Assembly: GCA_001189195.1 (NCBI GenBank)
Contig: LFCQ01000002.1
Span: forward strand, 4,997 to 68,996
Direction of reading: 5' to 3'
From: Parcubacteria bacterium C7867-007
GTDB lineage: Bacteria > Patescibacteriota > Minisyncoccia > Phycocordibacterales > Phycocordibacteraceae
DNA length: 64,000 nt
Part shown: positions 14,211-62,706 of the stretch, piece after piece
Layout: the number at the start of each line of letters is the position of its first letter
Position numbering within the stretch: the stretch's first letter is position 1
Made by a program: the position numbers and the translations under genes
Notes under the pieces: model-generated
What the model was told of the DNA's origin: nothing
Database searches by the model: none
The model's input: only the letters and a program-made list of their open reading frames with translations

Positions 14211-14216
14211 TATTAG

Positions 14217-14572: not shown

Positions 14573-14599
14573 GGCAGACTAGGGATCGAACCTAAATCT
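14573..14599 (+). repeat. tRNA-3'-end-like direct repeat, type B (TGGCAGACTAGGGATCGAACCTAAATCT)
   Basis: Minus-strand sense AGATTTAGGTTCGATCCCTAGTCTGCCA reads as T-stem, TTCGATC T-loop and acceptor 3' strand; overlaps the pilC stop codon; no matching 5' half anywhere, so it is a tRNA fragment. Confidence 0.8.
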
Positions 14600-27932: not shown

Positions 27933-27967
27933 GTTGAGAAGTTGAAGCAGTATGTGACTATGCATAC

Positions 27968-27998
27968 TGCAAGTCTGGGACGATGTTGGGGCCTTTCT
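27968..27998 (+). repeat. tRNA-3'-end-like repeat, type A variant (TGCAAGTCTGGGACGATGTTGGGGCCTTTCT)
   Basis: 28/31 identical to the consensus; first boundary of the tRNA-Pro-proximal array. Confidence 0.75.
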
Positions 27999-28068
27999 CG
28001 TCAAATGGACATAGCTCACGAAAAGGTATACGAATATAAAGAGTACAGAAGAAACACGGAGTCGAAAC

Positions 28069-28557: not shown

Positions 28558-28560
28558 TAT

Positions 28561-28612
28561 CGCTTCGCTGGTGCTGGCATATTCCAGCACCAGCCACTGC
28601 CATACCTTTTTT
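28561..28612 (+). terminator. double hairpin terminator
   Basis: gctggtgctggcatattccagcaccagc stem, then ccatacctttttt / aggtatggctttttt. Confidence 0.5.
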
Positions 28613-28627
28613 AGGTATGGCTTTTTT

Positions 28628-28660
28628 GCTGGCAGTCTGGGACGATGTTGGAACCTTTCT
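28628..28660 (+). repeat. tRNA-3'-end-like repeat, type A consensus (GCTGGCAGTCTGGGACGATGTTGGAACCTTTCT)
   Basis: Perfect consensus copy, directly between a terminator and a promoter. Confidence 0.8.
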
Positions 28661-28666
28661 CTACAA

Positions 28667-28694
28667 TTGACAATGGTATTTATTTACGTATAAT
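28667..28694 (+). promoter_or_regulatory. sigma70-like promoter (TTGACA, 16 bp spacer, TATAAT)
   Basis: Exact consensus hexamers 7 bp downstream of the repeat; RBS AGGAGG follows. Confidence 0.5.
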
Positions 28695-28737
28695 AGTAAA
28701 TGGGTACTTTTGCCCCTTCATATTAGGAGGTCCTCCA

Positions 28738-29133
28738 GTGGAGACCGCAATCAATTGGAACCAAATGCCGTTCAGGGTTCAGGCTGAAATTAACATCGGC
28801 CTGTACAGCGTGGAGAACACGCAACCCTATTTCGCACGATTGACTGAGCGCCTACAGGCGATCATCGATTCGAGCGAACAGTGGCGTGATTCTGCCGAAA
28901 ACGGAAACGACTGGCACGTTTGCCGGCCCGAGGTGAGAGGGTTCGGCGCGCACTTTAAACTGCTTGTGCCCTTCTCCGAAATCAAGCCGAGCCAACTTCG
29001 AGCTTTGTGCTCGTACGTCAACAGACTCGCTGAACGACTGGCTGAAGAAAACGATCCGAACATTGATACGGTCTACGCTGAAGTCGCCTTCAGACCCTGC
29101 AGCACAATCTTTACTAGCGGAAGTAGCTTGTAG
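28738..29133 (+). CDS. hypothetical protein (cassette gene); GTG start preferred over the longer ATG ORF that begins at 28645
   Basis: AGGAGG lies 8 nt upstream of the GTG at 28738, whereas the ATG at 28645 falls inside the repeat; no family match. Confidence 0.4.
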   Translation: METAINWNQMPFRVQAEINIGLYSVENTQPYFARLTERLQAIIDSSEQWRDSAENGNDWHVCRPEVRGFGAHFKLLVPFSEIKPSQLRALCSYVNRLAERLAEENDPNIDTVYAEVAFRPCSTIFTSGSSL

Positions 29134-29191
29134 AGATTCCTTAATGCGCGCCCTGTCTTTGAAAAACAAGATGGGGCGCTTTCGATATCTG

Positions 29192-29224
29192 GCTGGCAGT
29201 CTGGGACGATGTTGGAACTTTTCT
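29192..29224 (+). repeat. tRNA-3'-end-like repeat, type A (GCTGGCAGTCTGGGACGATGTTGGAACTTTTCT)
   Basis: Near-perfect consensus copy. Confidence 0.8.
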
Positions 29225-29239
29225 AAGCTTAGAATAGAC

Positions 29240-29268
29240 TTGACTTTTATATATATTAATAGTATGGT
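29240..29268 (+). promoter_or_regulatory. sigma70-like promoter (TTGACT, 17 bp spacer, TATGGT)
   Basis: Hexamers with an AT-rich spacer downstream of the repeat and upstream of the 29301 ORF. Confidence 0.4.
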
Positions 29269-29300
29269 AGTTTCAGGTATTGAAACGTATGGGGTAAGAA

Positions 29301-29636
29301 ATGGATTTTGCGATTTTGGACGCCCTCGATGCTCTGAAGGAGCAGGAGAAAGCACGACTACGAGAAGAGCTGCCCAAAAGGCTGGCACACTCTCACTTCG
29401 TCTGGTGGCGCCGGATGCTTCATCTGGCCACCTTCTTCAATCACGACCGCATCGACTGCCGCATCCCACTTTGGGTCCGGCTAGTGCTTGGAAACGAAGA
29501 TGCGTTTCAAGCATACACTGATGCGCTTCAAGAAAGATTCGGCTCATCGTTTCAGGTCTATCTGGGACGTCCAATTGGATACCCCGAGGCCCGATACGAT
29601 CGCGTGTGTATCGAGTTTCAAGCCGCAGCCGCCTGA
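29301..29636 (+). CDS. hypothetical protein (cassette gene)
   Basis: 111-aa ORF with its own promoter-like element and a strong terminator. Confidence 0.45.
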   Translation: MDFAILDALDALKEQEKARLREELPKRLAHSHFVWWRRMLHLATFFNHDRIDCRIPLWVRLVLGNEDAFQAYTDALQERFGSSFQVYLGRPIGYPEARYDRVCIEFQAAAA

Positions 29637-29640
29637 AGAA

Positions 29641-29686
29641 GCCCGGAGGATAATTCCCCGCTGCTCCTCCGGGCGGCTTCTTTTTA
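29641..29686 (+). terminator. Rho-independent terminator
   Basis: gcccggagga...tcctccgggc 10-bp stem followed by ttcttttt. Confidence 0.6.
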
Positions 29687-29713
29687 TAAAAGTTCGATAC
29701 CTTTTGAAAGGGG

Positions 29714-29742
29714 TGGCAGACTAGGGATCGAACCTCAAATCT
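29714..29742 (+). repeat. tRNA-3'-end-like repeat, type B (TGGCAGACTAGGGATCGAACCTCAAATCT) fused 3 bp after the tRNA-Pro 3' end
   Basis: Identical to the 14573 copy except for one inserted C; minus-strand sense is a T-arm plus acceptor fragment of a tRNA different from tRNA-Pro. Confidence 0.8.
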
Positions 29743-29745
29743 TTG

Positions 29746-29816
29746 TCGGGGTGCGGGGAATTGAACCCCGTCTAACTGGTCCCAAACCAGTCGTACTACC
29801 GGTATACGACACCCCG
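29746..29816 (-). tRNA. tRNA-Pro (anticodon GGG)
   Basis: 71 nt: acceptor CGGGGTG/CACCCCG, anticodon loop UUGGGAC, T-loop GGTTCAATTCC. Confidence 0.85.
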
Positions 29817-36487: not shown

Positions 36488-37411
36488 TTAGTTTTGGCGA
36501 CGAGAATGAAACTTCTTGTGGACCTCACGTAAGTGCGCATCAGTAACGTGAGTGTAGATCTGAGTTGTGGTGATGGATGCATGACCAAGCATCTGCTGTA
36601 CAGAGCGAATATCAGCACCATTGTTCAGAAGATCCGTAGCGAATGAGTGACGCATCACGTGAGGCGTCACTTTCTTTGTAATGCCGGCTTTAGCGGCATA
36701 GATTTTAATCATGCGCTCAACCGATCGGGGGGTGAGACGTGTGGGCACACGTTTAGACGTCTTCTCAGGATCCTTGCTTGGCATGGGCGGAATATTCACA
36801 AAAAGTGCCTCATCCATGTCTTTTCGTGCTTTAAGATACGCTCGAACGGCTGTTTTTGCTTCATCAGAAAGGAATACCACACGAACTTTTTCTCCTTTAC
36901 CTCTAATAGGGAAGTCATCTCTACTTAGATCGAGATCAGTATTGAGGGAACAAAGCTCTGAAACACGAAGTCCTGTTGAGAAGAGAAGTTCGAGTATGGC
37001 CTTGTCTCTGAGGGACTTCTCATCGGTTCCGACTGCTGAAGCAAGTAAACGATTGAGTTCGGTCGGGGAAATAAGGTCCAAGTGGCGTTCTGGTACCTTT
37101 GCAAGCTCAATTCGCTCAGGAGAAAGGCCATCCATACCTCGTTTTCGAAGGAATTTAAGGAATGCTCGTAGAGCAATGAGGTAATAATTCTGGGTACGGC
37201 GCTTCATGGTGCCAGAAACACCCTGTTGGCGGTTTAGCCAGAGCCGAAATTCACGTACCTTTTCCTCCGTTATGTCAGAAACCTCTTTAATAGCCATTTG
37301 ATCAAAGAAACGGCTTAGGTAGTGGTCGTAGTTCTCAATAGTCTTCACTGCACGACCACGCTCAATCTCAGTGTGCTCTAAAAACTGCCGTTTCCAGTCC
37401 TCAATATTCAT
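36488..37411 (-). CDS. tyrosine site-specific recombinase, XerC/XerD family
   Basis: SAM-like N-domain; catalytic R..HxxR..Y context (HVMRHSFAT, LGHASITTTQIYTHV). Confidence 0.85.
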   Translation of the reverse strand: MNIEDWKRQFLEHTEIERGRAVKTIENYDHYLSRFFDQMAIKEVSDITEEKVREFRLWLNRQQGVSGTMKRRTQNYYLIALRAFLKFLRKRGMDGLSPERIELAKVPERHLDLISPTELNRLLASAVGTDEKSLRDKAILELLFSTGLRVSELCSLNTDLDLSRDDFPIRGKGEKVRVVFLSDEAKTAVRAYLKARKDMDEALFVNIPPMPSKDPEKTSKRVPTRLTPRSVERMIKIYAAKAGITKKVTPHVMRHSFATDLLNNGADIRSVQQMLGHASITTTQIYTHVTDAHLREVHKKFHSRRQN

Positions 37412-49295: not shown

Positions 49296-50348
49296 ATGAA
49301 CGAAGAGGAAATCAATACAGACGAGCTTGATCTGAATCAGCAGATTGCGGTGTTGATGAGAGAGCTTCCTAAACCGGTACAAGATTTCCTTAAGAGCCCT
49401 GAGCGCGACGCCGTTTCACTAGAACTAAGCACCAAATACTCTCTACACGCTGATCAGGCTGGTGTATTCTCTCGCGCATACCTATTCATGCTTTTGGGGG
49501 TATACACACCAGATGAATTCATACAGGAACTGCGGGAGGCAGGAATTTCAGAACCATCTATTCAGGGTATAACTGCAGATGTAAACGAACGAGTATTCAA
49601 GCGCCTACAAAATGCTGAGCGCTCATATGTTGCTCCAGTTCCTGTACAGCCAGCACCAGTCACACCAATACAGGTACCTGTACAAACACAAGCAGTTCCT
49701 CCTGCTCCTGTTACACCTCCAGTGGTTCCCATACAACCAGTTCCTGCAGCTCCAGTGGTACCTATATCAATGCCAACTCCATTTGGTCCAGTGCCAAAAA
49801 GTATGCCTTCAGTCCTGCCTCAGGTGACTGCACCTCTCCCGCCACCAGTTCCCATGCCGGTACCACCACCTGAGCCAGTTGTACCTGCGTACGTTGCTCC
49901 AGAAGTGCAACAACAAGCAGTTCGCACCATGGCACATGACATGCAGATGATGAAGGAGGCAGCAGAGCACCCGCACCCCGTTCATCATGAACCCGTACCG
50001 GTTCATGCAAACAGCACTCCTCCTGCAATATCTTGGCAACCAAACTCGCCTGCACGATCATTCCAAACTTCTTCGGTTCCAAATACGTTAGCTGCTCCGA
50101 GCATTCACCCCGCACCCACTGTTCCTGTGCCTCCCATGCCCGCAGCACCTCCTATCCCTTCTGCGCCAGCACCCGTACACCCACTTCCACCCTCAGCAGC
50201 ACCAGTACCACACAATCTTCCAACGCAACCCGCAGCATATCCTTGGCAACAGCAACAGACCGTCACCCCACCAACAATGCCGCAAGCAAATGGAATTCCG
50301 ATCGTTAAAGAATACGGTGTGGATCCATATAGAGAGGTGCCTCAGTAG
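49296..50348 (+). CDS. proline-rich hypothetical protein
   Basis: Extensive PxxP tracts (PVPPPEPVVPAYVAP). Confidence 0.4.
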   Translation: MNEEEINTDELDLNQQIAVLMRELPKPVQDFLKSPERDAVSLELSTKYSLHADQAGVFSRAYLFMLLGVYTPDEFIQELREAGISEPSIQGITADVNERVFKRLQNAERSYVAPVPVQPAPVTPIQVPVQTQAVPPAPVTPPVVPIQPVPAAPVVPISMPTPFGPVPKSMPSVLPQVTAPLPPPVPMPVPPPEPVVPAYVAPEVQQQAVRTMAHDMQMMKEAAEHPHPVHHEPVPVHANSTPPAISWQPNSPARSFQTSSVPNTLAAPSIHPAPTVPVPPMPAAPPIPSAPAPVHPLPPSAAPVPHNLPTQPAAYPWQQQQTVTPPTMPQANGIPIVKEYGVDPYREVPQ

Positions 50349-50369
50349 GGAACTGGTATACTCCTAGTT

Positions 50370-50795
50370 ATGGAGTATCAGGTTCCTCAATTTATTGAAG
50401 TTGAAGATAAGATTTTTGGTCCACTCACCCTCAGACAATTCATATTTGTTGCAGGGGGTATTGGGTTGTGCGTAATACTTTTCATTTATCTTCCTAAGTT
50501 CCTCGCGTTATTGATTGGTCTTCCTGTCGCCGCACTGGCTGCTGCGCTCGCATTCTACAAAGTAAATAACAAAACGTTCTTAGACATGATGGAGGCAGGT
50601 TTTAACTACTACACCAAAGAGCGTTTGTATCTTTGGAAACAGGGTGACAAGAAGTCTGAAACCCCAGCCATCGTGCAGGTTGCTCCACCAACCCAAATAG
50701 AGCGCCAAAAGCTGGGTATTTCAAGCGATCGTTTGAAAGAACTTGCGTGGTCTCTTGATATCAAGGATCACAATAGGACACCAGACGCACCATAA
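50370..50795 (+). CDS. PrgI-family (VirB3-like) T4SS membrane protein
   Basis: YQVPQFIEVEDKIFGPLTLRQFIF followed by two TM helices, immediately upstream of the VirB4 genes. Confidence 0.5.
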   Translation: MEYQVPQFIEVEDKIFGPLTLRQFIFVAGGIGLCVILFIYLPKFLALLIGLPVAALAAALAFYKVNNKTFLDMMEAGFNYYTKERLYLWKQGDKKSETPAIVQVAPPTQIERQKLGISSDRLKELAWSLDIKDHNRTPDAP

Positions 50796-50810
50796 CGCTA
50801 TAGTCTATTT

Positions 50811-51443
50811 ATGCCCGCATCGAAACCAGCTCAAGATTTTGTACCCGTCTCTGAAGTACGCAGTGGGGTAATCATCCTTAAAGAGGGTGGGTATCGTGGT
50901 GTCATGATGTGTTCATCACTCAACTTCGCGCTTAAATCAGAGGATGAGCAGCGAGCAATTATTGGAGGCTTTCAGAACTTCCTTAATACACTTGATTTCA
51001 CGGTGCAGATCGTAGTGCACTCACGCAAGACAGACATTCGTCCGTATTTAAATCTTCTTAATGAACGTCTTGAGCATCAAAATAGTGAATTGATGCGTAT
51101 CCAGTTGAGGGAATACATAAACTTCATACGAACCTTCATTGAAGGCTCTGACATTATGACGAAGACCTTCTATGTGGTGGTGCCTTATTCAACGAGTAGC
51201 GCGGTTGTTTCTGTTAAGGGGGCATTTTCAGGCATAGGAAAGAGTGCAAGCACGGCACCCGCTGCAGATCAGGGGTTTGAAGAAGGGAAGGTACAGCTTG
51301 AACAGCGTATGGCTCTAGTCGCTGGAGGTCTCGCAAGCTCTGGTTTGCGTGCCATACCCCTGGGTACCGAAGAAATCATTGAGCTCCTTTATCGTTCGTT
51401 CAACTTGGGCGAGATGGATAATCCTATTTCATTTACCGCATAA
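50811..51443 (+). CDS. hypothetical protein resembling the VirB4 N-terminal domain (separate ORF, 5 bp before the VirB4 ATPase gene, different frame)
   Basis: SGVIILKEGGYRGVMM...TKTFYVVVPYS matches the CagE/TrbE/VirB4 N-domain pattern. Confidence 0.35.
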   Translation: MPASKPAQDFVPVSEVRSGVIILKEGGYRGVMMCSSLNFALKSEDEQRAIIGGFQNFLNTLDFTVQIVVHSRKTDIRPYLNLLNERLEHQNSELMRIQLREYINFIRTFIEGSDIMTKTFYVVVPYSTSSAVVSVKGAFSGIGKSASTAPAADQGFEEGKVQLEQRMALVAGGLASSGLRAIPLGTEEIIELLYRSFNLGEMDNPISFTA

Positions 51444-51448
51444 ACCGT

Positions 51449-53263
51449 ATGGCACTCCTTGATTTTTTCAATCGCGACAAGAAAGACGAAACTCCGGCAA
51501 TCGCACCGGTACTTCCTAAAGATATCTATGCACAAGGAACTCTTGATCTTGCAGATACCATTGCTCCTGCAGCCCTTAAGGTTGGTTCTCGTGAGCTTGA
51601 GTTGGGGGAGAAGGTTTCTCGTTCCTTCTACACCATCTCATACCCACGCTTCCTGAGTGACAGCTGGTTCACCCCGATCGTTAATCTCGATAAGGTGTTT
51701 GATGTATCAATATTTGTGAGTCCTATTGATACTGCTGATGCCCTTCGAAACTTCCAGAGGAAAGTGGCTGAGGTACAGAGCCAAATCTCAGAGCGAGAAA
51801 CAAAGGGCTTGGTGCGTGACCCAATGCTTGATACTGCATACCAAGACCTTGAAACACTGCGAGATAACCTCCAACAAGCCCAGGAGCATCTCTTTGAGGT
51901 GGGGCTCTATATAACAATGTATGCCTCTACAAAGGAGGAGCTCGATAAGGTTGAGGGTGAGCTACGCGGCATATTGGACTCCAAATTGGTGTACACCAAG
52001 CCAGCACTCTTCCAACAGGAGCAGGGTTTCCGTACCACACTTCCACTAGCACTTGATGAACTGCAGGTTACCAACAAACTTAACTCATCTCCACTCTCCT
52101 CTATATTCCCATTCGTATCATTCGATCTTTCAAGTGATCGAGGCATCCTCTACGGCATTAACCGCCACAATTCTTCTCTAATTCTGTTTGATCGTTTCTC
52201 TCTTGAGAACTACAACTCTGTGGTGTTTGCAAAGTCGGGTTCAGGCAAGTCGTACGCCGTGAAGCTGGAGATCCTTCGTTCGTTGATGTTCGACACTGAT
52301 GTCATTGTTATTGATCCTGAGCGTGAGTATGAATACCTTGCACAAGCAACGGGGGGTCGTATGTTTAATATCTCACTTTCAAGCGAGAACCACATCAATC
52401 CTTTCGATCTTCCTCCTGTTAAAGAAGATGAAAACCCATCAGATATTCTTCGCAGCACCATCATCAATCTGGTTGGTTTGTTCCGTATCATGCTTGGTGG
52501 TCTCACACCTGAAGAAGATGCCATCATTGACCGTGCCATCTCTGAAACGTACGCACTTAAAGACATCACTGGAGATGTAGACTTTACGGGTGTGGAACCT
52601 CCACTCCTTTCAGACTTCGAAAACGTTCTTTCGGGTATGGAGGGCTCTACCTCATTGGTACAGCGTCTTTCTAAATACACACGTGGTACTTGGGCAGGTT
52701 TCCTGAATCAACCAACAAACGTTGATATCAATAACCAATTCATCGTGTTCTCGGTGCGAGATATGGAGGATGAGCTCAAGCCTGTAGCGATGTATATTGT
52801 TACGCACTTTATCTGGAATGCAGTACGCCATGAGCTAAAGAAGCGTCTCCTTATAATCGATGAGGCGTGGTGGATGATGAAATCTGAAGACACAGCATCG
52901 TTCCTCTTCAGTATTGCAAAGCGTGGACGTAAGTACTTCCTAGGTCTTGCAACCATTACACAGGACGTTGAAGACTTCCTTCGCAGTCCTTACGGTCGCC
53001 CCATCCTTACCAACTCTTCGATGCAGTTACTTCTTAAGCAATCTCCAACCACGGTTGATGTACTTCAAGAAACATTCAACCTAACGGACGAAGAGAAATA
53101 TCTCCTTCTCGAGTCAGGGGTGGGGGAGGGTCTCTTCTTCGCAGGCCTCAAACATGCAGCTATAAAGATCGTTGCTTCATACACCGAAGACCAGATCATC
53201 ACTTCAGACCCATCGCAGTTGCTCCAGATACAGCGCGAAAAGGCGCGTCACGATGGTGTGTAA
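51449..53263 (+). CDS. VirB4-family conjugation/T4SS ATPase (Gram-positive type)
   Basis: Walker A AKSGSGKSYAV, Walker B LLIIDEAWWMM, conserved YPRFLSDSWF N-region. Confidence 0.8.
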   Translation: MALLDFFNRDKKDETPAIAPVLPKDIYAQGTLDLADTIAPAALKVGSRELELGEKVSRSFYTISYPRFLSDSWFTPIVNLDKVFDVSIFVSPIDTADALRNFQRKVAEVQSQISERETKGLVRDPMLDTAYQDLETLRDNLQQAQEHLFEVGLYITMYASTKEELDKVEGELRGILDSKLVYTKPALFQQEQGFRTTLPLALDELQVTNKLNSSPLSSIFPFVSFDLSSDRGILYGINRHNSSLILFDRFSLENYNSVVFAKSGSGKSYAVKLEILRSLMFDTDVIVIDPEREYEYLAQATGGRMFNISLSSENHINPFDLPPVKEDENPSDILRSTIINLVGLFRIMLGGLTPEEDAIIDRAISETYALKDITGDVDFTGVEPPLLSDFENVLSGMEGSTSLVQRLSKYTRGTWAGFLNQPTNVDINNQFIVFSVRDMEDELKPVAMYIVTHFIWNAVRHELKKRLLIIDEAWWMMKSEDTASFLFSIAKRGRKYFLGLATITQDVEDFLRSPYGRPILTNSSMQLLLKQSPTTVDVLQETFNLTDEEKYLLLESGVGEGLFFAGLKHAAIKIVASYTEDQIITSDPSQLLQIQREKARHDGV

Positions 53264-53269
53264 CTAAAT

Positions 53270-53641
53270 ATGGCAGCAAAGCCCATTAACGTTGTTGAGC
53301 AGGGGCTAGTGATTGGAGGCGCAGCACTTGCAGATACCATAGGACTCATTCCTGTTGTAGGAAATATCGTTTGGTTTATAGCCTTTTTGTCTTTAAATAT
53401 CTACTTCCTCATTAAACTAGGACCATCGTATCTGGGTGGAAAACGCACCTCCACGAAGATGATCCGCACGATTATAAGCGGTATTATTGGTGCAATTCCT
53501 GTTGTGGGTAACATAGCTCCTGAACTATTAATCCTCACCCTTAGTACTTTTTGGATGAATAACAAAGAGGTTATGGAGGAAGAGGCTGCGAGGCAGGCAG
53601 CAAACGACAACACTCCTTCTAAAATATCCCGTGCTGCGTAA
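53270..53641 (+). CDS. small two-TM membrane protein with internal GxIPVVGNI repeats
   Basis: 123 aa; IGLIPVVGNIVW and IGAIPVVGNIAP repeats. Confidence 0.4.
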   Translation: MAAKPINVVEQGLVIGGAALADTIGLIPVVGNIVWFIAFLSLNIYFLIKLGPSYLGGKRTSTKMIRTIISGIIGAIPVVGNIAPELLILTLSTFWMNNKEVMEEEAARQAANDNTPSKISRAA

Positions 53642-53678
53642 CAGGGTACGCGCACAGACGCGGTATACTGTACGTACT

Positions 53679-54665
53679 ATGAAAGCTGGTTTTGGAGTAC
53701 TGGTGACGCTTCTTATCCTCTCTGTTGGTGTACCCGCACATGCGCAAACACTGTCTCTTGATCAAGACCCACTAACGGTACAGATTAGTCCAAACTTCCC
53801 ACGACCCTTTGAGGCGGTGACGGTTGTGCCGGGTAGTACTATAATCGACCTTTCTGCGAGTACCGTTACCGTATCGGTAAACGGTGTGGTGGTAGAGAAG
53901 GGAAGCGGTAGCGCTCCGGTTCAGATACAGGCAGGTGGGGCAGGTGCACGCACAGTTGTTAAGGTAACCGCAGTACATAACGGTCAAACCTTCACTAAGG
54001 AAATCACCATCCGTCCTGCAGATGTCGCACTGGTTGTTGAACCTTCTTCCGTTTCACATCCCTTCTACAAAGGAGCATCGCTTGTTTCCTCTGAAGGACT
54101 CCTTCGCTTGGTGGCACTTCCAGACCTACGTACTGCTGCTGGTGCACCTATCCCTTCGTCAAACCTTGTATTCACCTGGCGAAACGGGAGCCAGATCCTC
54201 CAAGACTCTTCTGGTATTGGGAAGTCTGTGCTAACCGCAACCGCTCCTGTTCGATACCGCGATACCACCATCCGCGTTACTGTTTCAACACAAGACAATA
54301 GTGTTGTTGCAGAAGCAACCGCATTCATTTCTCCAACCGTTCCTGTTATTCGCATATATCAAAACGATCCATTGCTTGGTCCACTCTTTAATTACGCACT
54401 CCCAAAGAAGATTTCCATGACTGACGAGGAGCAGACCTATCGTGCCGTTCCTTATTATTTCTCAGGTACACCGATTATGAATTGGACCGTGAACGGCAAC
54501 CAAAGCCAGTCTGGGAAAGATATAACCGTTCGTTCAACGGGGGCAGGTAGCGGTACTGCGTTGGTAGGGTTCAACGCCAAACAACCTTCAGCAGGTGTGG
54601 TGGCGGACACCTCTATGAGTGTTTCCTTTGGTGGCGCTAAGCCTCTTGGTATATTTGGTCTATAA
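53679..54665 (+). CDS. secreted hypothetical protein
   Basis: Signal peptide ending AHAQT; Thr/Val-rich beta-type composition. Confidence 0.4.
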   Translation: MKAGFGVLVTLLILSVGVPAHAQTLSLDQDPLTVQISPNFPRPFEAVTVVPGSTIIDLSASTVTVSVNGVVVEKGSGSAPVQIQAGGAGARTVVKVTAVHNGQTFTKEITIRPADVALVVEPSSVSHPFYKGASLVSSEGLLRLVALPDLRTAAGAPIPSSNLVFTWRNGSQILQDSSGIGKSVLTATAPVRYRDTTIRVTVSTQDNSVVAEATAFISPTVPVIRIYQNDPLLGPLFNYALPKKISMTDEEQTYRAVPYYFSGTPIMNWTVNGNQSQSGKDITVRSTGAGSGTALVGFNAKQPSAGVVADTSMSVSFGGAKPLGIFGL

Positions 54666-54667
54666 AT

Positions 54668-55435
54668 ATGAACCGACCCACCCTTACAACCACCTCCACC
54701 TTCTTGCTAAGCACTGTATTGCTTTCAATACCGTTTCTTGTGTTTGCAGACGATAGCTTTGTTCCACTCACCAGCCTTCCTGGTCTAGATAATGTTATTG
54801 GAGAAAGCACGTTGCCTGGATTTATAAACAATCTCTATCGTCTTCTCATTGGTGCTGCGGCTATCGTAGCTGTTGTAGAGATTATTTGGGCAGGCTTCCT
54901 GTTCATGAACAGCAATGACAGTATCTCTGCTAACAAAAAAGCGAAGCAAAAGATTACTAATGCGATCATAGGTCTGGTTCTGGTGCTTTCCCCATACGTC
55001 GTATTTAGTGTGATCAACCCGAAGATCCTTGATGTGAATCTAGACTTTGGACAATTAAAGGGTGGTGACAGTACCGGCGGCGCAGGCAGTACTGAAGATG
55101 TAAATGTTATTTCTATCGATTCAAAGTCGAGCAAAGAAGATGCAGGGGCAGTTTGTAGTAAGGAGGGAGGAAATCCAATATTCAGCTGTAAGCCAGAAAA
55201 AGGAGATGCGTATGTGGTGACCAAAGACCAAGCATGTAAGACAGGTGAAACTACCGTTACAACCTGCACAAAACCTAAGAACACTGATCCAAATGCTTGT
55301 GTAGATACTGGCGCCGCAACCGTCATCGCCCCTAAAGGTGACTCTTCATACTCACGAGACGGGTATATTCAAGTGAAGGATTCGTGCTGCAAAGGCATGA
55401 CTGCAGGAAATGTCTGTTGGCAAAAACCTAAATAA
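54668..55435 (+). CDS. VirB2/TrbC-like pilin candidate with Cys-rich C-terminal extension
   Basis: Signal peptide plus two hydrophobic helices separated by a short basic loop, then a Cys-containing tail. Confidence 0.3.
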   Translation: MNRPTLTTTSTFLLSTVLLSIPFLVFADDSFVPLTSLPGLDNVIGESTLPGFINNLYRLLIGAAAIVAVVEIIWAGFLFMNSNDSISANKKAKQKITNAIIGLVLVLSPYVVFSVINPKILDVNLDFGQLKGGDSTGGAGSTEDVNVISIDSKSSKEDAGAVCSKEGGNPIFSCKPEKGDAYVVTKDQACKTGETTVTTCTKPKNTDPNACVDTGAATVIAPKGDSSYSRDGYIQVKDSCCKGMTAGNVCWQKPK

Positions 55436-55436
55436 C

Positions 55437-56651
55437 ATGACCAGACGCATACTCATCATTGCCGCAGCTATCGTAGTAATCGTGGGTATTGCCCTTGCGG
55501 TGTATTTCTTCTTTTTTGCTCCTAAGTCTGGTGAATTAATTATTGGCGATCCATTTGGTGATACTGGTAGTGGCACCGTAGAGCCTGGATCACTGATAGA
55601 AGGGCAGGGGGCAGGAACCGTCGTTGGTCCTAACTTTGTCCGTATCACAGAAGGTCCTGTATCTGAAGGAGTGGTGGCATTTGGGATAATGATTCCATCT
55701 GAAGCAGGCACGGTAAGCACCACAAGCAGTAGTACTCCTCTCGTGCCTGATGTTGCGGTACGGTTTATAGATCGCGCCAGTGGGAACATATACAGCTATG
55801 TAGCGCATGCACGCACCCTTACACGTATTTCAAATAAAACACTTCCAGGTATCCAGGAAGCATCATGGGTACCAAACGGAACATTAGCGTATGTACGATT
55901 CATCACGAGTGACTCAGCTTCTGGTGAGCACGTGGCAACATACGCGCTTCCAGAGAATGGGGAAGGGGGGTACTTCATTGAACAGGACCTTTCCGAAGCA
56001 CGGGTGGTGGGTTCAACCGGCCTCTTCACCATGATTTCTAACACAGGGGGAAGTGTGGGAACTATCGCAAAGGTAGACGGTACCGGTGCACGCACCCTCT
56101 TCACCTCACTTATCTCTTCTCTAATTGTTCACCCTGCAGGAAACACATACTTCGCACACACCAAAGCTTCAAGTCAGACGGAAGGGTATGGCTTCCAAAT
56201 AATAAATGGCTCGTTTAATCGTATTCTTGGCCCACTTAACGGCCTCTCGCTTCTCCCAAGCCCTTCAGGAAAATCACTTCTCTATAACTATGTAAGTGGT
56301 GGAGTAACACGTCTTGCGGTTATTGATCTTGCAAACCGAAACGCAACAGCACTTCCTTTAAGCACCCTGAGTGAGAAGTGTGTGTGGGCAAGTGAGCTCA
56401 CCGTGTACTGTGGAGTTCCAACAACCCTAAGTGGGTACAAGCTTCCTGAGGACTGGTACCAGGGTGCTGCACCGTTCTCTGACCGTATCTGGCGTATTGA
56501 TATGACCGCACGTGTCGCAACACTTGTGGTGGACCCTACACAGGTCGCAAAGACCTCTATCGATGCCATTGCACTCACCACGGACCCCAAAGAAGACGTT
56601 CTCATCTTCACTGATAAGAAAACTGGTTCGCTCTGGTTATACAATCTATAG
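55437..56651 (+). CDS. TM-anchored hypothetical protein (last gene of the T4SS-like cluster)
   Basis: N-terminal TM helix; Gly/Thr/Ser-rich beta-type ectodomain. Confidence 0.4.
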   Translation: MTRRILIIAAAIVVIVGIALAVYFFFFAPKSGELIIGDPFGDTGSGTVEPGSLIEGQGAGTVVGPNFVRITEGPVSEGVVAFGIMIPSEAGTVSTTSSSTPLVPDVAVRFIDRASGNIYSYVAHARTLTRISNKTLPGIQEASWVPNGTLAYVRFITSDSASGEHVATYALPENGEGGYFIEQDLSEARVVGSTGLFTMISNTGGSVGTIAKVDGTGARTLFTSLISSLIVHPAGNTYFAHTKASSQTEGYGFQIINGSFNRILGPLNGLSLLPSPSGKSLLYNYVSGGVTRLAVIDLANRNATALPLSTLSEKCVWASELTVYCGVPTTLSGYKLPEDWYQGAAPFSDRIWRIDMTARVATLVVDPTQVAKTSIDAIALTTDPKEDVLIFTDKKTGSLWLYNL

Positions 56652-57992: not shown

Positions 57993-59342
57993 ATGAATCG
58001 TTCTGATCCGCATGAGCTCTGGGAATACATGCTGACGCAGGTCGAACTCTCTATATCTTCAGCCAATTTCAACACTTGGTTCAAGGAAAGCACGATAGTA
58101 AAGATAGAGGACGGTATCGTATACATCGGTGTTCCAAGCCAGTTCTTCCGTGATTGGTATCAAAAGAAGTTCCACACACTTCTTTTGAAGATTGTGCGTG
58201 ATGTTTCGTATGAATTCAGGAATATCGAGTACATGATCGTGAAAGATATTGCTCGCAAACCAAAGGAGCAGCGTACTCGCCGTGAACCAACACCAGAACT
58301 ACCTCTCAATGAGTTCTATATCAATAAAAGCGATAATCTAAACCCTCGTTACACGTTTGATACGTTCGTTGTTGGTTCATTTAATGAGTTGGCTCATACC
58401 GCAGCCATGGCAGCTATTGCGCGCCCAGGTATTACCTACAACCCTCTCTTCATTTATGGCGACACTGGTCGTGGAAAGACACACCTGATTCAGTCCATTG
58501 GTAACCAGTACAAGAAACAGTATCCAAATCGTAAAGTGTTTTATCTCACTTCAGAGAAGTTTGGTACTGATTACACTGACTCACTCCAGCAAGGCACTGC
58601 AAACCGCTTTAAAGAGAAGTATCGTCAGTATGATCTGTTGATTATGGACGACGTACAGTTCCTTTCCCGTAAGGAAAAGATGCAGGAAGAGTTATTCCAC
58701 CTCTTTAATACCCTCTACGACAACAATAAACAGATCGTATTCTCCTCAGATCGTGCCCCTATCGCTATCCCAGACATCGCAGACCGCCTTCGTGGACGCT
58801 TTGTATCCGGTATGACCGTTGATATTGGTGAACCAGACAGTGAATCTCGTATCGCTATTGTGCGAAAGAAGGCAGCAATGAGTGGTATCACCCTTTCTGA
58901 TGAGGTTGCTGAGTATATTGCTACCTCTGTTACCGGTTCAATTAGAGAATTGGAAGGTGTTCTTAACTCAGTAGTGTGCCACACACAGGTAAAAGGAACT
59001 CCTCCAGATATCGCTGAAGTGAGACAATCCCTTCGTTCATTCTCACGCCCTTCAAAAACAGTATCTGTGAAGCATGTGGTGTCTAAAATTGCTGAATTCT
59101 ATGGCATTGAAGAGGAGAGTATCTATGAGAAGACCCGTAGAAGGGAGGTGGTACGCCCACGCCAAGTGATTATGTATATTCTTCGTGAAGATTTCAGTGT
59201 TTCATATCCAACCATAGGTTCTAAACTTGGTGGTCGTGACCACACCACTGTCATTCACTCCTGCGAAAAGGTTAAACGTGAAGTTGCAGAAGATACTGAA
59301 CTCGCAAAAGAGATTCAGGATATTCGTACCTTGTTAGTCTGA
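57993..59342 (+). CDS. dnaA: chromosomal replication initiator DnaA
   Basis: Walker A GDTGRGKTHL, sensor and box VII motifs, C-terminal DNA-binding domain. Confidence 0.95.
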   Translation: MNRSDPHELWEYMLTQVELSISSANFNTWFKESTIVKIEDGIVYIGVPSQFFRDWYQKKFHTLLLKIVRDVSYEFRNIEYMIVKDIARKPKEQRTRREPTPELPLNEFYINKSDNLNPRYTFDTFVVGSFNELAHTAAMAAIARPGITYNPLFIYGDTGRGKTHLIQSIGNQYKKQYPNRKVFYLTSEKFGTDYTDSLQQGTANRFKEKYRQYDLLIMDDVQFLSRKEKMQEELFHLFNTLYDNNKQIVFSSDRAPIAIPDIADRLRGRFVSGMTVDIGEPDSESRIAIVRKKAAMSGITLSDEVAEYIATSVTGSIRELEGVLNSVVCHTQVKGTPPDIAEVRQSLRSFSRPSKTVSVKHVVSKIAEFYGIEEESIYEKTRRREVVRPRQVIMYILREDFSVSYPTIGSKLGGRDHTTVIHSCEKVKREVAEDTELAKEIQDIRTLLV

Positions 59343-59583
59343 TTGTGAAGAAAGTCTGGGGATTCCCTGTGGATAGCCTGGAGATAAATAGAGGAAGAAC
59401 TATGGGGAGAACTATCTAATAGCGGTAGAGTTTTCCCCACTGTTTCAACCGGCCTCCTTCTATCCACAGTCGTTGTACTCCACTTTCACACAGCTTGAGT
59501 GAAACCTGCGTAAGGGTTTCAGAGCGTATATACTAGAGATATCGCTCTTTCCCCAGTATCCACACCCCTAATAATAAAGAATC
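59343..59583. other. candidate oriC: at least three DnaA boxes plus an AT-rich unwinding tract between dnaA and dnaN
   Basis: CTATCCACA (59460), GTATCCACA (59556), reverse TGTGGATAG (59368); AT-rich aataataaagaatcatgattatcaatatag at the dnaN start. Confidence 0.6.
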
Positions 59584-60684
59584 ATGATTATCAATATAGA
59601 AAAAAAGGAGTTCTCGGAAGCAGTCAGTAGAGTGTCTCGATTTGCTGAGAGGAAATCAGCAACACTACCGGTACTCGCAGGTATCGCTATTGTTGCAGGG
59701 GATGATGGAATCAAACTTCGTGCAACAAACCTTGAGACCGGTATTGATTTCAAGATGGGTGGAACTATAGAGCAGCCAGGGGTGGTGGCTCTTCCTGCTA
59801 TTACTCTTCGTGAGATAACGAGCTCATTCTCTGGAACCGGAACTATTAAACTCGAGCATACAGGAGATACGGTCCTTATCTCCTCCTCTGCAGGGCGCAG
59901 TACGCTTAAGACACTGGCATACGAAGATTTCCCCACACTTCCATTCCCTGAAGCTCCTACGGCTAAATTCACGCTTCCAGGAGTATCTATCCGTACACTA
60001 GTACTCACAGTTGCTGGTTGTGCATCACCCTCAACTGTTCGTCCTGAGCTCGCTAGCGTACTCCTTTCTGCAGAAGGCGGCATTGTGAAGGCTGTTGCCA
60101 CAGACTCCTTCCGTCTAGCAGAGAAGAAAATCTCAGTAACAGGCTCTGTGGCACCGTTTTCTATACTTATTCCTGCAAAGAATGCGATCGATATCGTACA
60201 AACACTTCCTGATACCGATGTGGATGTTCTTATTGACGAACACCAGTGTGCATTCTCTTGGCCTGGAGGTATTGTTACAACTCGTCTCGTAACGGTCCCA
60301 TACCCTGACTACACACAGATAATTCCAAAGCAGTTTGTTTCTGAAGCTACTCTTCTCCGAAAGGACTTTGAGGCAGTACTTCGTCGTACGGCAATCTTCT
60401 CAGATTCATTCCAGAAGATTCGTGTTGGATTCTCTACAACAGAGAAAAAGATTGCATTCTCTGCCCGCAACAGTGATGTTGGAGAATCTTCTGAAAATGT
60501 CCCTGCCTCTATTTCTGGTGAAGCAATTGAACTATCGTTTAATCACCGTTATCTAGCTGCACCCCTATCACTTATTAGTTCAGAAAACCTTTCACTTTCA
60601 GCAGCAGGTATTGGACGTCCACTCATTATTAAAGGAATTGGAGATAATACATTCCTGTATCTTGTGATGCCAATGAATCAGTAG
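59584..60684 (+). CDS. dnaN: DNA polymerase III beta sliding clamp
   Basis: 366 aa with three-domain clamp architecture immediately after dnaA. Confidence 0.95.
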   Translation: MIINIEKKEFSEAVSRVSRFAERKSATLPVLAGIAIVAGDDGIKLRATNLETGIDFKMGGTIEQPGVVALPAITLREITSSFSGTGTIKLEHTGDTVLISSSAGRSTLKTLAYEDFPTLPFPEAPTAKFTLPGVSIRTLVLTVAGCASPSTVRPELASVLLSAEGGIVKAVATDSFRLAEKKISVTGSVAPFSILIPAKNAIDIVQTLPDTDVDVLIDEHQCAFSWPGGIVTTRLVTVPYPDYTQIIPKQFVSEATLLRKDFEAVLRRTAIFSDSFQKIRVGFSTTEKKIAFSARNSDVGESSENVPASISGEAIELSFNHRYLAAPLSLISSENLSLSAAGIGRPLIIKGIGDNTFLYLVMPMNQ

Positions 60685-60690
60685 GCGTAG

Positions 60691-60712
60691 CTGAGATGAT
60701 ATTGAACTTCCA
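60691..60712 (+). repeat. degenerate tRNA-3'-end-like repeat (CTGAGATGATATTGAACTTCCA), first boundary of the dnaN-proximal array
   Basis: 17/22 matches to CTGGGACGATGTTGGAACCTTT, same orientation, 7 bp after the dnaN stop. Confidence 0.5.
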
Positions 60713-60726
60713 GTAGCAAAATAGAC

Positions 60727-61176
60727 TTATTTGTTTGTAATAAAATCAATAATCCAGAGCAAAAGGGAATACCCCAATGGGAATGTAGGAAGTACAATCA
60801 GTAAGAAATTTTCAGTTCTACTCAGTTTAGTAACAACTGGAGGTTTAACACGGTAGCGGATATAGCCGATAAAAATAGAAATAAAACCAACTACTAGAGC
60901 TATTCCTAATGCGCCAATAAAATAGATTGCTAGAGCGAAGTTTGTACTACTCCCCGCACCACCAGTTGCCGATGCGCAGTAATTATTTAAGCCGCACTCA
61001 AGAAGCATACGTACATCACCAACACTAAGTGCAACTAACACAACAGCGATGACAGAAAACATCCCAGTAAAAATAGCTGCTCCGAAAGCTGATCCACCTA
61101 TTTTCCATCCAATCTGATGCGTAAAGTAGAGAGCGACAAACGAAATAATTACAAAGCTTAGTACAGTGACTATCAT
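60727..61176 (-). CDS. four-TM membrane protein (cassette gene)
   Basis: 149 aa with four hydrophobic helices. Confidence 0.45.
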   Translation of the reverse strand: MIVTVLSFVIISFVALYFTHQIGWKIGGSAFGAAIFTGMFSVIAVVLVALSVGDVRMLLECGLNNYCASATGGAGSSTNFALAIYFIGALGIALVVGFISIFIGYIRYRVKPPVVTKLSRTENFLLIVLPTFPLGYSLLLWIIDFITNK

Positions 61177-61196
61177 GTAATAAAGATACCACTACT

Positions 61197-61229
61197 ACTG
61201 GCAGACTGAATTGAAGTTGGAACCTTTCT
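61197..61229 (+). repeat. tRNA-3'-end-like repeat, type A variant (CTGGCAGACTGAATTGAAGTTGGAACCTTTCT)
   Basis: Both ends conserved, central part diverged. Confidence 0.7.
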
Positions 61230-61275
61230 GCAACATGTGGTAGTTTTCGTCCAGAATCGGTAATCGGAGGCTATT

Positions 61276-61551
61276 ATGGCACAACGCAAGAAGAAGTTAC
61301 TCGCTGAAAAAGTGGTTCCGGCGTATTCGGCCCAGTTGTACTCTTCGACTGAAGGAAGACAATTCTTCCCTGACATTCTGCAGGATGCTTTCGGCGAGAA
61401 AACCATCACCGGCTTTCATCGCTATGAACGTGTTCTTGGTGCACTCATTCCTATGGAGGCCCTATTAATGCTCGCTGGGTGCGACCAAGAGATTGATGAG
61501 GGTATGAAGCTTCGTATTAAAAACGCAGCTCGAAACCTCCTTTATTCATAG
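61276..61551 (+). CDS. hypothetical protein (cassette gene)
   Basis: 91 aa, preceded by a GGAGG RBS and followed by a terminator. Confidence 0.45.
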   Translation: MAQRKKKLLAEKVVPAYSAQLYSSTEGRQFFPDILQDAFGEKTITGFHRYERVLGALIPMEALLMLAGCDQEIDEGMKLRIKNAARNLLYS

Positions 61552-61574
61552 CCATGTCTCGATCAAGTTTTTTA

Positions 61575-61611
61575 AACCGCCCACTCATCCGAGTGAGCGG
61601 TTTCTTTTTAT
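61575..61611 (+). terminator. Rho-independent terminator
   Basis: ccgcccactc-atcc-gagtgagcgg stem followed by tttcttttta. Confidence 0.55.
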
Positions 61612-61615
61612 TGTT

Positions 61616-61645
61616 AACAGCTTGGGACGATGTTGGAACCGTTAT
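61616..61645 (+). repeat. tRNA-3'-end-like repeat, type A variant (AACAGCTTGGGACGATGTTGGAACCGTTAT)
   Basis: The core GGGACGATGTTGGAACC is perfect. Confidence 0.75.
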
Positions 61646-61647
61646 AT

Positions 61648-61938
61648 TCAACTAAGTACCAAAAGAATCTCACTCACCCCTATGCCGATACAGATAGATC
61701 CCAAACCGATTAATACGTAGGATGAACTTTTAAAGCCTGGAATCAGTACCAGTATCTGACCAAGTTTAAATCGCTCGGACCAGATCTGAGTTAAGCCTAA
61801 AAAGACGGAGAATATACCCAAAACTCCAAATAGTAAGCCACCTTGAACGGATTGTTCATAGGGTCCATATATCGTTGCGGCTACTCCACATAAAAAACAA
61901 AAGGCGGAAACTATTGCAACGATTGTGACGCGGTTCAT
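61648..61938 (-). CDS. three-TM small membrane protein (cassette gene)
   Basis: 96 aa; starts 38 bp from the next repeat. Confidence 0.45.
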   Translation of the reverse strand: MNRVTIVAIVSAFCFLCGVAATIYGPYEQSVQGGLLFGVLGIFSVFLGLTQIWSERFKLGQILVLIPGFKSSSYVLIGLGSICIGIGVSEILLVLS

Positions 61939-61973
61939 CGCTCTACTGTATCAGCAAATCTTAAGATACTTTT

Positions 61974-62002
61974 GCTGGCAGTCTGGGACGATGATGGAAC
62001 CA
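61974..62002 (+). repeat. tRNA-3'-end-like repeat, type A (GCTGGCAGTCTGGGACGATGATGGAACCA)
   Basis: 28/29 identical to the consensus. Confidence 0.8.
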
Positions 62003-62046
62003 AATTAAAATCTTGGGCGACTACGTTTTAGTAGCCGCCCGAGTGA

Positions 62047-62349
62047 TTAGGTTATCGTTGTGGCTCGATTCGCCGCAACAAACTTTAGAAACTTCTTCCT
62101 TCTTGCAGGTGGCACCCCTTTCGGTGTTGCTACGATACAGCCCCACTTTTGGCGACTCAGTACGTGAAAGGGGCGGTATTGAGATTCTGGAAAGGCTTGG
62201 TTGTAGATCTTCCGTAAAACCGAGTCGCTTGGAAGAGTCAGGTTGAAGATGTTGTCTTTACGACGCAAACTCCAGCGGGAAACATTTTTCTTATCTCTGT
62301 CCCAATGCAACCAGCCATATTTCATCTCAAGAATAGGTTCAATAGCCAT
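62047..62349 (-). CDS. hypothetical basic protein (cassette gene); preferred over the antisense ORF 62013..62246
   Basis: 100 aa with a more protein-like composition than the Leu/Ser/Arg-rich overlapping plus-strand ORF. Confidence 0.35.
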   Translation of the reverse strand: MAIEPILEMKYGWLHWDRDKKNVSRWSLRRKDNIFNLTLPSDSVLRKIYNQAFPESQYRPFHVLSRQKWGCIVATPKGVPPARRKKFLKFVAANRATTIT

Positions 62350-62405
62350 GTATGCATCTCCTCTTTCTACAGAAGACTATTATTCATATGTTGAGTTTGT
62401 GCAAG

Positions 62406-62435
62406 CTGAAAGACTAGCGATCGAACTTTTTAATC
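62406..62435 (+). repeat. degenerate tRNA-3'-end-like repeat, type B-like (CTGAAAGACTAGCGATCGAACTTTTTAATC)
   Basis: AGACTAGcGATCGAAC matches the type B core (T-loop GATCGAAC retained); last boundary, 20 bp upstream of the DciA-like gene. Confidence 0.6.
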
Positions 62436-62454
62436 AAGGCTATATACTTTACCT

Positions 62455-62706
62455 ATGAAAAGCCTTGCAGACCTACTTCTCAACCACAAGGTACCTGGTG
62501 TACGGGATGCCCAAATACGCCATGCGATTGCTGAAGAACTAACACAGTTACTACAAGTCCCCATTGAACCAAGGCAGGTTAAGTATAAGGATGCAGATTT
62601 GGTACTCGCAGTACCACCAATAATTAAGTCTGTTGTGAAGCTGCGAACACAGGAAATAATTGAAGTGCTGCAGAAGCGAGATATACGTATAGCAACAATA
62701 AAATAA
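62455..62706 (+). CDS. DUF721/DciA-like protein (replicative-helicase loader family usually adjacent to dnaN)
   Basis: 83 aa; ...ELTQLLQVPIEPRQVKYKDADLVLAVPPIIKSVVKLRTQEIIEVLQ fits the DUF721 pattern (HT.P..L.dG.L.V.V.S..W..EL...eIl..L). Confidence 0.45.
   Translation: MKSLADLLLNHKVPGVRDAQIRHAIAEELTQLLQVPIEPRQVKYKDADLVLAVPPIIKSVVKLRTQEIIEVLQKRDIRIATIK

Follow-up and report, generated by a model that had tools for sequence, protein, structure and literature searches.

Immediately downstream of dnaN in Parcubacteria bacterium C7867-007, a member of the candidate phyla radiation (CPR, or Patescibacteria), short direct repeats divide a spacer into small units with one gene each. The DNA analyzed here, which we call the window, is a 64-kb stretch (64,000 nucleotides) of contig LFCQ01000002.1; coordinates refer to it unless a locus from another genome, written as L with a number, is named. 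The dnaN segment is, in our judgement, rather likely to be one array of an integron-like, site-specific cassette system that is widespread in CPR and is served by a recombinase acting in trans. With about as much belief as doubt, we hold the broader interpretation that CPR bacteria possess their own integron-analogous form of gene capture, independent of IntI and attC, which would use a 33-bp site derived from tRNA-Gln, the tRNA-Gln gene and several mimics per genome as platforms, an unlinked recombinase (possibly the housekeeping Xer or an unrecognized class), and a vast pool of ORFan cassettes across phyla.

The arrays are built from two kinds of site. Type A has the consensus GCTGGCAGTCTGGGACGATGTTGGAACCTTTCT and type B the consensus GCTGAAAGACTAGCGATCGAAC, and the right-end form of B in the window arrays is GCTGGCAGACTAGGGATCGAACCTAAATCT. 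The reverse complement of type B, AGGTTCGATCCCTAGTCTGCCAGC, reads as the T-arm and acceptor 3′ strand of a tRNA, with U1-A72/G73 features. We write A′ and B′ for the sites on this tRNA strand, where A′ is aAAGGTTCCAACATCGTCCCAGACTGCCAGCAA and B′, 25–30 nt long, is TAGGTTCGATCCCTAGTCTGCCAGCAAT. When A′ (AGGTTC[CAACATCG]TCCCAGACTGCCAGCA) is compared with the tRNA-Gln end or B′ (AGGTTC[GA]TCCCTAGTCT(C/G)CCAGCA), the tRNA-like sequence is identical, but A′ has a 12-nt segment in place of the 7-nt T-loop. There are three arrays in the window, at 14.2 kb, at 28–29.7 kb and in the dnaN spacer, and each has a B site at its right end.

In the dnaN spacer, the insertion is flanked on the left by dnaN (59584–60684, + strand; PF00712/02767/02768) and on the right by a conserved 83-aa gene (62455–62706, +) that lies outside the array. 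Four small open reading frames (ORFs) occupy the intervening ~1.8 kb, with coordinates and mixed strands exactly as an earlier reading of the sequence alone had given them: c149 (60727–61176, −), a predicted membrane protein and ORFan; c91 (61276–61551, +); c96 (61648–61938, −), a small membrane protein; and c100 (62047–62349, −). These coordinates come from the ORF list, and neither the four ORFs nor the 83-aa gene has a Pfam match. The only match to c149 among 5.8 billion proteins is its own entry from Parcubacteria bacterium C7867-007, and none of the 80+ dnaN loci of relatives contains it. Read directly from the sequence, the signals of c91 are a GGAGG ribosome-binding site (RBS) and a 13-bp hairpin with a T-run as terminator at 61574–61610, and those of c100 are an AGGAG RBS and a hairpin at 62016–62041. 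A consensus promoter and terminator scan of the region did no better than shuffles.

Type A copies were located with an nhmmer profile and a gapped local-alignment scan of the window. Three stand in the dnaN array, all on the + strand: a diverged one at 61196–61229 (CTGGCAGACTGAATTGAAGTTGGAACCTTTCT; nhmmer E 0.016, alignment score 40), followed by the shared extension CTGCAACATGTGGTAG; one at 61611–61649 (E 3e-10); and one at 61972–62008 (E 9e-11), the last two with a single mismatch in the core. Gapped alignment scores of these copies (starting at 61196, 61611 and 61972) were 40–52, against a window background of ≤24. The array head at 62404–62435 (+) is a degenerate type B variant (GCTGAAAGACTAGCGATCGAACTTTTTAATC) that scores 32 against the B consensus, where the background is ≤26; read on the opposite strand, it resembles the tRNA-Gln T-arm and acceptor 3′ end. 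At the dnaN-side end (60685–60726, +), the copy at ~60691–60716 (GCTGAGATGATATTGAACTTCC) has an alignment score of 18, equal to background, and was not recovered by the nhmmer type A profile. However, this position, 14–15 nt past the dnaN stop, holds a full A in L248 and a diverged A in L246 (CTGAGATGGTGTTGGAAC, compared with CTGAGATGATATTGAAC in the window). Because both relatives carry an end A at exactly the same position, the window copy is probably a real A copy that has decayed. Where six same-orientation copies of a roughly 30-bp element had been proposed, we therefore find two clear A copies at 61611 and 61972, a diverged one at 61196, and a type B site at 62404; the copy at 60691 is at background by itself, and the sixth, placed in the flank, could not be identified.

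The repeats are not a product of chance. A scan with the exact 19-mer core CTGGGACGATGTTGGAACC gave 6 matches in the window at ≤3 mismatches, where 0.01 were expected, and the copies outside the dnaN array (14188, 27975, 28637 and 29201) are all on the + strand. The shuffles and the clustering of the copies rule out a chance or repetitive extragenic palindromic (REP)-like repeat. Minimum free energies (MFE) of A and B were 0 to −1.2 kcal/mol, no better than those of shuffled sequences, which excludes an attC-like hairpin, and A has no inverted arms. As the sequence-only reading had proposed, then, the repeats fall outside the known attC and dif classes. A search of the window with Rfam at gathering thresholds returned four tRNAs only and no family at the sites, and ARAGORN called no tRNA at A or B, so an RNA gene or known RNA family at the sites was discarded. 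In a subclass of cassettes, A is directly followed by a 26-nt extension, CTGCAACATATGGTAGGTTCTGTCTA, found at 61229–61255 of the window and in many other loci (e.g., L012, L053, L108, L110, and L116). It precedes a gene directed away from the site and may be a shared promoter/5′ untranslated region (UTR) or an operator; together with the TTGGAA within A it could form a promoter.

The second array (14178–14598, +) is the simplest, with A at 14178–14214, the cassette ORF c98 (14217–14513, −), which encodes a 98-aa membrane protein, and B at 14569–14598, overlapping the TAG stop of a T2SS-F/pilC-like gene (14592–15806). The third (27964–29742, +) has three units, with A at 27964–28002, 28626–28664, and 29190–29228, ORFs at 28069–28557, 28739–29133, and 29301–29636, and B at 29712–29742, which abuts tRNA-Pro (29745–29816, −). 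Its units carry their own signals, for example, a TTGACA-16 nt-TATAAT promoter just past the site at 28668, and hairpins before the next site. A generic REP element would be scattered through every spacer of the genome; here there are three clusters in 64 kb, always bounding single-gene units, co-oriented, and without a hairpin. An inverted T-arm-like motif, AAAGTTCGATACCTTT, was also seen ~10 nt from a B or A site (window 29690–29705; L012 2241–2256), making a head-to-head tRNA-like pair.

The contents of the dnaN spacer turn over between fixed flanks. We reached close relatives through homologues of the 83-aa protein, and their DnaN is 89–97% identical to that of the window. In L233/L234, from C7867-008 (DnaN 97%), the spacer holds one 320-aa gene and no sites, while in L235–L239 (92%) it is an empty 27 nt. 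L250 (92%) has one 83-aa ORF and a decayed B; L248 (91%) has a perfect B before the 83-aa gene, three internal A sites, and the full A 14 nt past the dnaN stop; L246/L247 (91%) have a perfect B, four A sites, and the diverged end A, with ORFs of 186, 89, 118 (HNH), and 159 aa; and L240–L245 (89%) have B, one A, and two ORFs. The number of units in the spacer is thus 0, 1, 2, 4, or 5, and the units are unrelated. Arrays of the close relatives have the orientation seen in the window. Neither B, which is perfect or near-perfect in L240, L246, and L248, nor the end A changes position, and the interiors have only the sites in common. An identical gene order in all close relatives, which would have spoken against cassette polymorphism, is not what these loci show. 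In the more distant L221 (DnaN 81%), the array is reversed relative to that of the window, and its B′ overlaps the stop codon of dnaN. A founder cassette without its own A next to dnaN, as L240, L221, and the window suggest, is not general, since L248 has its full A there. Two spacer genes deserve mention in their own right: the 320-aa gene of L233 (4019–4981; GC content 0.37, no A or B sites) has a weak DKNYY match and represents either an insertion of another kind or an array whose sites have been lost, and a cassette of the L246 array (3037–3393) encodes an HNH endonuclease (PF01844).

Judged by synteny, the 83-aa gene would be the ancestral immediate neighbour of dnaN: it starts 2–26 nt past the dnaN stop in ~28 more distant relatives and has been lost in others. 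Its direct adjacency to dnaN in these relatives agrees with the proposal that a modular insertion has split a conserved locus. The gene had also been described as DUF721/DciA-like and a usual neighbour of dnaN; the conserved synteny with dnaN is real, but no hidden Markov model (HMM) supports the label. The protein has no Pfam or NCBIfam match even at E up to 10, its 50 homologues are all annotated as "hypothetical" and none of the 50 has a precomputed Pfam domain, and a profile of 18 homologues found no match in the PDB. An AlphaFold2 model from the single sequence reached a predicted local distance difference test (pLDDT) score of 53, too poor for a fold search. None of these searches gave support for DciA as the identity of this gene.

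Turnover is also evident in the tRNA-Pro array, where the orthologous locus L012 has flanks 73–79% identical to those of the window, which holds 1.7 kb and three units, whereas L012 holds 3.8 kb and at least five different units. Moreover, the same cassette can be found in different arrays and different classes. The c98 unit (14181–14575) is 93% identical to L053 6837–7231; in the window it lies between B′ and A′ beside pilC, and in L053, from C7867-008, two A′ sites of the tRNA-Gln array flank it. At the end of that same array, L053 7913–7998 matches the start of c96 and the site next to it with 93% identity. A 55%-identical homologue of c91 occurs in a Saccharibacteria metagenome-assembled genome (MAG), at L078 2592–2846, between A copies at 2498 and 2912, and L116 and L004 have a whole unit in common, with homology ending near the sites. 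A recombinant joint can be read directly from the window and L012: both carry the same left flank, ≥50 nt long (..TTTTATAAAGTTCGATACCTTT..GGGGTGGCAG), but it continues into the right half of B in the window and into the right half of an A in L012. Since one flank is joined to a B half in one genome and to an A half in the other, exchange would have taken place within or next to GCTGGCAG/NCT (GGCAG/NCT, the stroke marking the joint), and the c98 junctions agree with it. On the tRNA strand, this point would be just 5′ of CTGCCAGCAA and 3′ of the T-loop, where exchange keeps tRNA-Gln intact. We also considered a crossover in the T-loop or at AGGTTC and rejected it; it would put B′ at the distal end and disrupt tRNA-Gln, yet the tRNA-Gln at the head is intact.

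To see how far these arrays extend, we relied on an exact 18-mer search of the GTDB species representatives, and 98 low-GC CPR loci were taken as the set for detailed analysis. The 18-mer was found in >117 genome stretches, nearly all of them CPR MAGs, with hosts among Paceibacterota, Saccharibacteria, Kaiserbacteria, Nomurabacteria, WWE3, Levyibacteriota, Berkelbacteria, Wolfebacteria, and Moranbacteria. The 98 loci contain 241 A copies, whose orientation is uniform within every locus. Conservation is limited to ~33 nt (ttGCTGGCaGTCTGGGACGATGTTGGAACcTTt.T), and the flanking sequence is not conserved; a conserved 20-nt core across phyla with decaying flanks points to a protein-binding constraint. 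The 139 units between sites have a median length of 575 nt (range 182–2388), and the median of their coding fraction is 0.78. A single ORF of ≥60 aa is present in 104 of the 139, and the median size of the longest ORF is 136 aa. Of 132 units, 81 have an ORF that reads with the tRNA and 51 one that reads against it. Almost none of the 586 in-array ORFs recurs in three or more loci.

A few matches fell elsewhere. Those in L118–L151 and in ~19 high-GC genome loci lie within a conserved alphaproteobacterial phage or gene transfer agent (GTA)-like gene encoding VWDDVGTFDGRPWR. All 34 matches to the 18-mer in IMG/VR were in this coding gene of high-GC alphaproteobacterial phages. We treat these matches and those in alphaproteobacterial genomes as coincidence and do not regard the motif as a phage attP. 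No CPR phage in IMG/VR carries the motif. On low-GC contigs labelled as non-CPR, A copies occur in L062 (a Woesearchaeota archaeon, with three copies), in L005, L040, and L051 (Gammaproteobacteria), and in L069 and L079; these may reflect mis-binning, or the system may exist outside CPR, including in DPANN archaea. No account of the arrays was found in the searchable literature, motif strings included, or in a recent paper on horizontal gene transfer in Patescibacteria, with subscription-only literature outside the scope of the search.

The arrays are tied to tRNA-Gln. In the 98 loci, tRNA-Gln accounts for 27 of 46 tRNAs, and A′ is co-oriented with it in 27/27 loci and downstream of its 3′ end in 26/27. 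For example, in L053 (Parcubacteria C7867-008), tRNA-Gln ends in ...CTAGGTTCGATCCCTAGTCTCCCAGCA, and the units after it end in GGTTCCAACATCGTCCCAGACTGCCAGC. Scanning for B′ gave 52 B′/tRNA-Gln-3′ sites, all co-oriented with A′; 48 of them stand at the head of an array, and upstream of these no A′ was detected within the locus. Real tRNA-Gln genes contain 21 of the 52; the remainder are mostly free-standing mimics, with a few partial tRNA-Gln duplicates. B′ differs from the last 23 nt of tRNA-Gln by 0–5 mismatches. The usual sequence of a mimic is ..CCTAGTCTGCCAGCAAT, in which a tRNA-like T-arm is joined to the 3′ portion of A′. Across CPR, A′ is more conserved than the tRNA-Gln 3′ end itself. 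Both site types derive from the tRNA-Gln 3′ end, and the tRNA-Gln gene would be the primary platform and the dnaN array a secondary one.

Free-standing B′ heads very often start with TAG, the stop codon of an upstream co-directional host gene (pilC-like, dnaN, mltG-like, and others), as at window 14592–14594, L221 551–553, and L013 4399, and in L104, L098/L076/L038, and L108/L021/L023. The bases just before this TAG resemble the variable-loop region of tRNA-Gln (GAATCTAG), and the same host genes bear B′ in several genomes. A different arrangement was seen at L007 1457–1716 and L084 4066–4185, where the last 50 nt of tRNA-Gln (anticodon stem onward) stand in two or three tandem copies beside the gene, which suggests a separate classical integrative element that also uses tRNA-Gln.

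The cassette reading can be set out as a model. On the tRNA strand, which is the minus strand of the window, an array would begin with a head site, either the tRNA-Gln 3′ end or a 25–30 nt B′ mimic. After it would come units of ~0.2–2.4 kb, usually with one gene, its own expression signals, and either orientation, each ending with A′. A recombinase supplied in trans would recombine A′ with B′ or with another A′, with the crossover in the common CTGCCAGCAA or immediately 5′ of it, so that circular cassettes of gene plus A′ could be inserted at the head, excised, and moved between arrays. B′ would then correspond to attI and A′ to attC. What the loci show directly is the architecture with its strict polarity, the tie to tRNA-Gln, turnover between fixed flanks, occurrence of one cassette at several loci and in several classes, and recombinant joints; we infer the circular intermediates, the exact crossover point, and the enzyme. 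For the enzyme, the candidate is a tyrosine recombinase of the XerD/XerA type (36488–37411, −; PF00589 1e-41; NCBIfam XerD/XerA/XerC), acting in trans. No other tyrosine recombinase is present in the window, and this one is 23 kb away from the dnaN array and unlinked to any array there. Neither phmmer searches nor ORF clustering found a linked integrase. In L022 (3470–5103), the stop codon of an Xer ortholog coincides exactly with the end of an array of two units (B′ head, A′, A′), the first of which (3500–3780) has no ORF and may encode an RNA.

Several observations weigh against this reading. No recombinase is linked to the arrays, and phmmer on all ORFs of at least 120 aa in 117 loci gave a single Xer ortholog (that of L022); nor is there a recurrent in-array ORF family in the 98 CPR loci. 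A and B do not fold and have none of the inverted-repeat arms usually seen at the core sites of tyrosine recombinases, and sequence is conserved on only one side of the putative crossover. Neither a circular intermediate nor an empty/occupied pair within a single population was observed. The first entry of a B′ head and an end A′ into a site-less spacer is not accounted for, where distant relatives read dnaN TAG, 2–4 nt, ATG. In addition, an exact 18-mer search biases the sample to conserved copies. With no recombinase linked to any array and sites without the symmetry of classical core sites, there might be no dedicated recombinase at all, and the 33-nt repeats, which are 90–100% identical within a genome, would be portable homology for RecA-dependent swap, loss, and gain of units with environmental DNA. 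Pilus-type genes are present in the window, and DNA-uptake and pilus genes are common in CPR bacteria. We nevertheless consider this explanation unlikely: a 33-nt repeat barely reaches the length at which RecA can mediate exchange, B′ and A′ have only ~10–16 nt in common, yet B′ heads nearly all arrays, and RecA would predict neither the strict tRNA-Gln association nor the strict polarity. A 20-nt core kept across phyla while its flanks decay speaks for protein binding instead. Slightly less likely still, the arrays could be the decayed remnants of integrative elements (prophages or islands) that repeatedly targeted tRNA-Gln, with every integration leaving one gene and a copy of att behind. 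Such elements are classically recognized by a partial tRNA 3′ end, which B′ is for tRNA-Gln, and the tandem 50-nt partial copies of tRNA-Gln in L007 and L084 fit the same picture. Tandem accretion at tRNA genes is known, for example, from the tycheposons of Prochlorococcus, which are defined by an element-encoded integrase and hallmark replication genes (bioRxiv 10.1101/2020.12.28.424599). Like tycheposons and other tRNA-targeting elements, the arrays have a tRNA 3′ end as attachment site and partial-tRNA direct repeats, later insertions push older ones outward, and flexible genes are supplied to streamlined genomes. However, the units here are uniformly small (~0.6 kb) and mostly single-gene, and no integrase, phage, or replication hallmark genes lie in or beside the arrays of the 98 CPR loci. 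The internal repeat is a modified tRNA end (A′) rather than a tRNA fragment and is better conserved than the tRNA-Gln 3′ end, the motif is on no CPR phage in IMG/VR, and intact cassettes move as units.

It is improbable, in our view, that A and B serve as intergenic motifs of a regulatory or structural kind (bound by protein, similar to insulators or terminators, or REP-like) and happen to mark a region made hypervariable by other means. The sites are indeed intergenic, A contains the TTGGAA hexamer, and a putative promoter/5′ UTR segment of 26 nt follows one subclass; short, conserved, multi-copy intergenic sequences are also what REP and bacterial interspersed mosaic elements (BIMEs) are. 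Unlike REPs and BIMEs, these sites are non-palindromic, co-oriented per locus, and at the boundaries of mobile units, and they are not dispersed: they occur in three clusters only in 64 kb rather than in every spacer. They have no hairpin and no Rfam family, same-cassette homology between genomes starts and stops at the sites, and sister genomes lack the whole array in the same spacer. Least probable of all is a classical integron, with IntI, attI, and arrays of attC cassettes as implemented in IntegronFinder (PMC4889954). The resemblance to an integron-style array that the sequence-only reading had noted is supported: co-oriented sites each bound, usually, one gene; the cassettes are hyperdiverse and mostly of unknown function; a distinct platform stands at one end of nearly all arrays (B′ or the tRNA-Gln 3′ end), with A′ downstream; and cassettes are common to different arrays and taxa and turn over between fixed flanks. 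But integrons have intI beside the platform, whereas the arrays here have no adjacent integrase, and their platform is a tRNA-Gln 3′ end or a mimic, with several in one genome. The attC sites are sequence-variable imperfect palindromes that fold into hairpins, in contrast to a conserved, non-palindromic 33-mer with an MFE of ~0 kcal/mol. Integron cassettes are promoterless, in one orientation, and expressed from Pc, whereas 51 of 132 units here have the opposite orientation, units have their own RBS and terminators, and those of the 28–29.7 kb array include a promoter and terminators. The host range also differs, being CPR. Failure of these defining features already refutes membership among integrons.

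The favored cassette system would resemble integrative mobile elements exploiting Xer (IMEX) and plasmid dif (pdif) modules in its dependence on a host recombinase in trans, the Xer-type enzyme being the only tyrosine recombinase in the window. However, dif is 28 bp long, with two inverted 11-bp arms around a 6-bp spacer, and A has no inverted arms; dif lies at the replication terminus, whereas the dnaN array is ~1.1–3 kb from the dnaA–dnaN origin region and other arrays are at tRNA genes; and the sites here are all direct repeats, not alternating as in pdif modules. Clustered regularly interspaced short palindromic repeats (CRISPR) have repeats of 25–40 nt and non-coding spacers of 25–70 nt, whereas the sites here are 182–2388 nt apart with mostly coding DNA between them (the median fraction of 0.78 given above).

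The surroundings of the dnaN array are those of a replication origin region. The locus runs from rnpA and rpmH (minus strand) through dnaA (57993–59342), a 240-nt spacer, and dnaN to the array and the 83-aa gene, which is followed by a convergent penicillin-binding protein (PBP) gene. The dnaA–dnaN spacer (59343–59583) has several DnaA-box-like motifs (TGTGGATAG, TATCCACA, CTATCCACA, and GTATCCACA), consistent with oriC, and the cassette array starts ~1.1 kb from it. Upstream of yidC/rnpA, a + strand gene cluster at 49296–56651, most of it without Pfam match, includes a T4SS_pilin-family protein (54668–55435) and a protein with a Cadherin-like domain. The window contig is also present in the Joint Genome Institute (JGI) metagenome 3300001199.

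CPR bacteria make up a large share of bacterial diversity, with genomes of ~1 Mb, and their gene gain and exchange are poorly understood. If the cassette reading is true, a phylum-spanning system of this kind would explain the flexible gene pool in these streamlined genomes. The pool contains many small membrane or secreted ORFans, plausibly for host interaction. Such a system would also amount to an independent second answer to the problem that integrons solve, and its site would be a simple one, double-stranded and 33 bp long. It poses the question of which enzyme recognizes a mimic of the tRNA T-arm. A′ and B′ could serve as sequence tags for amplifying or mining CPR cassette metagenomes.

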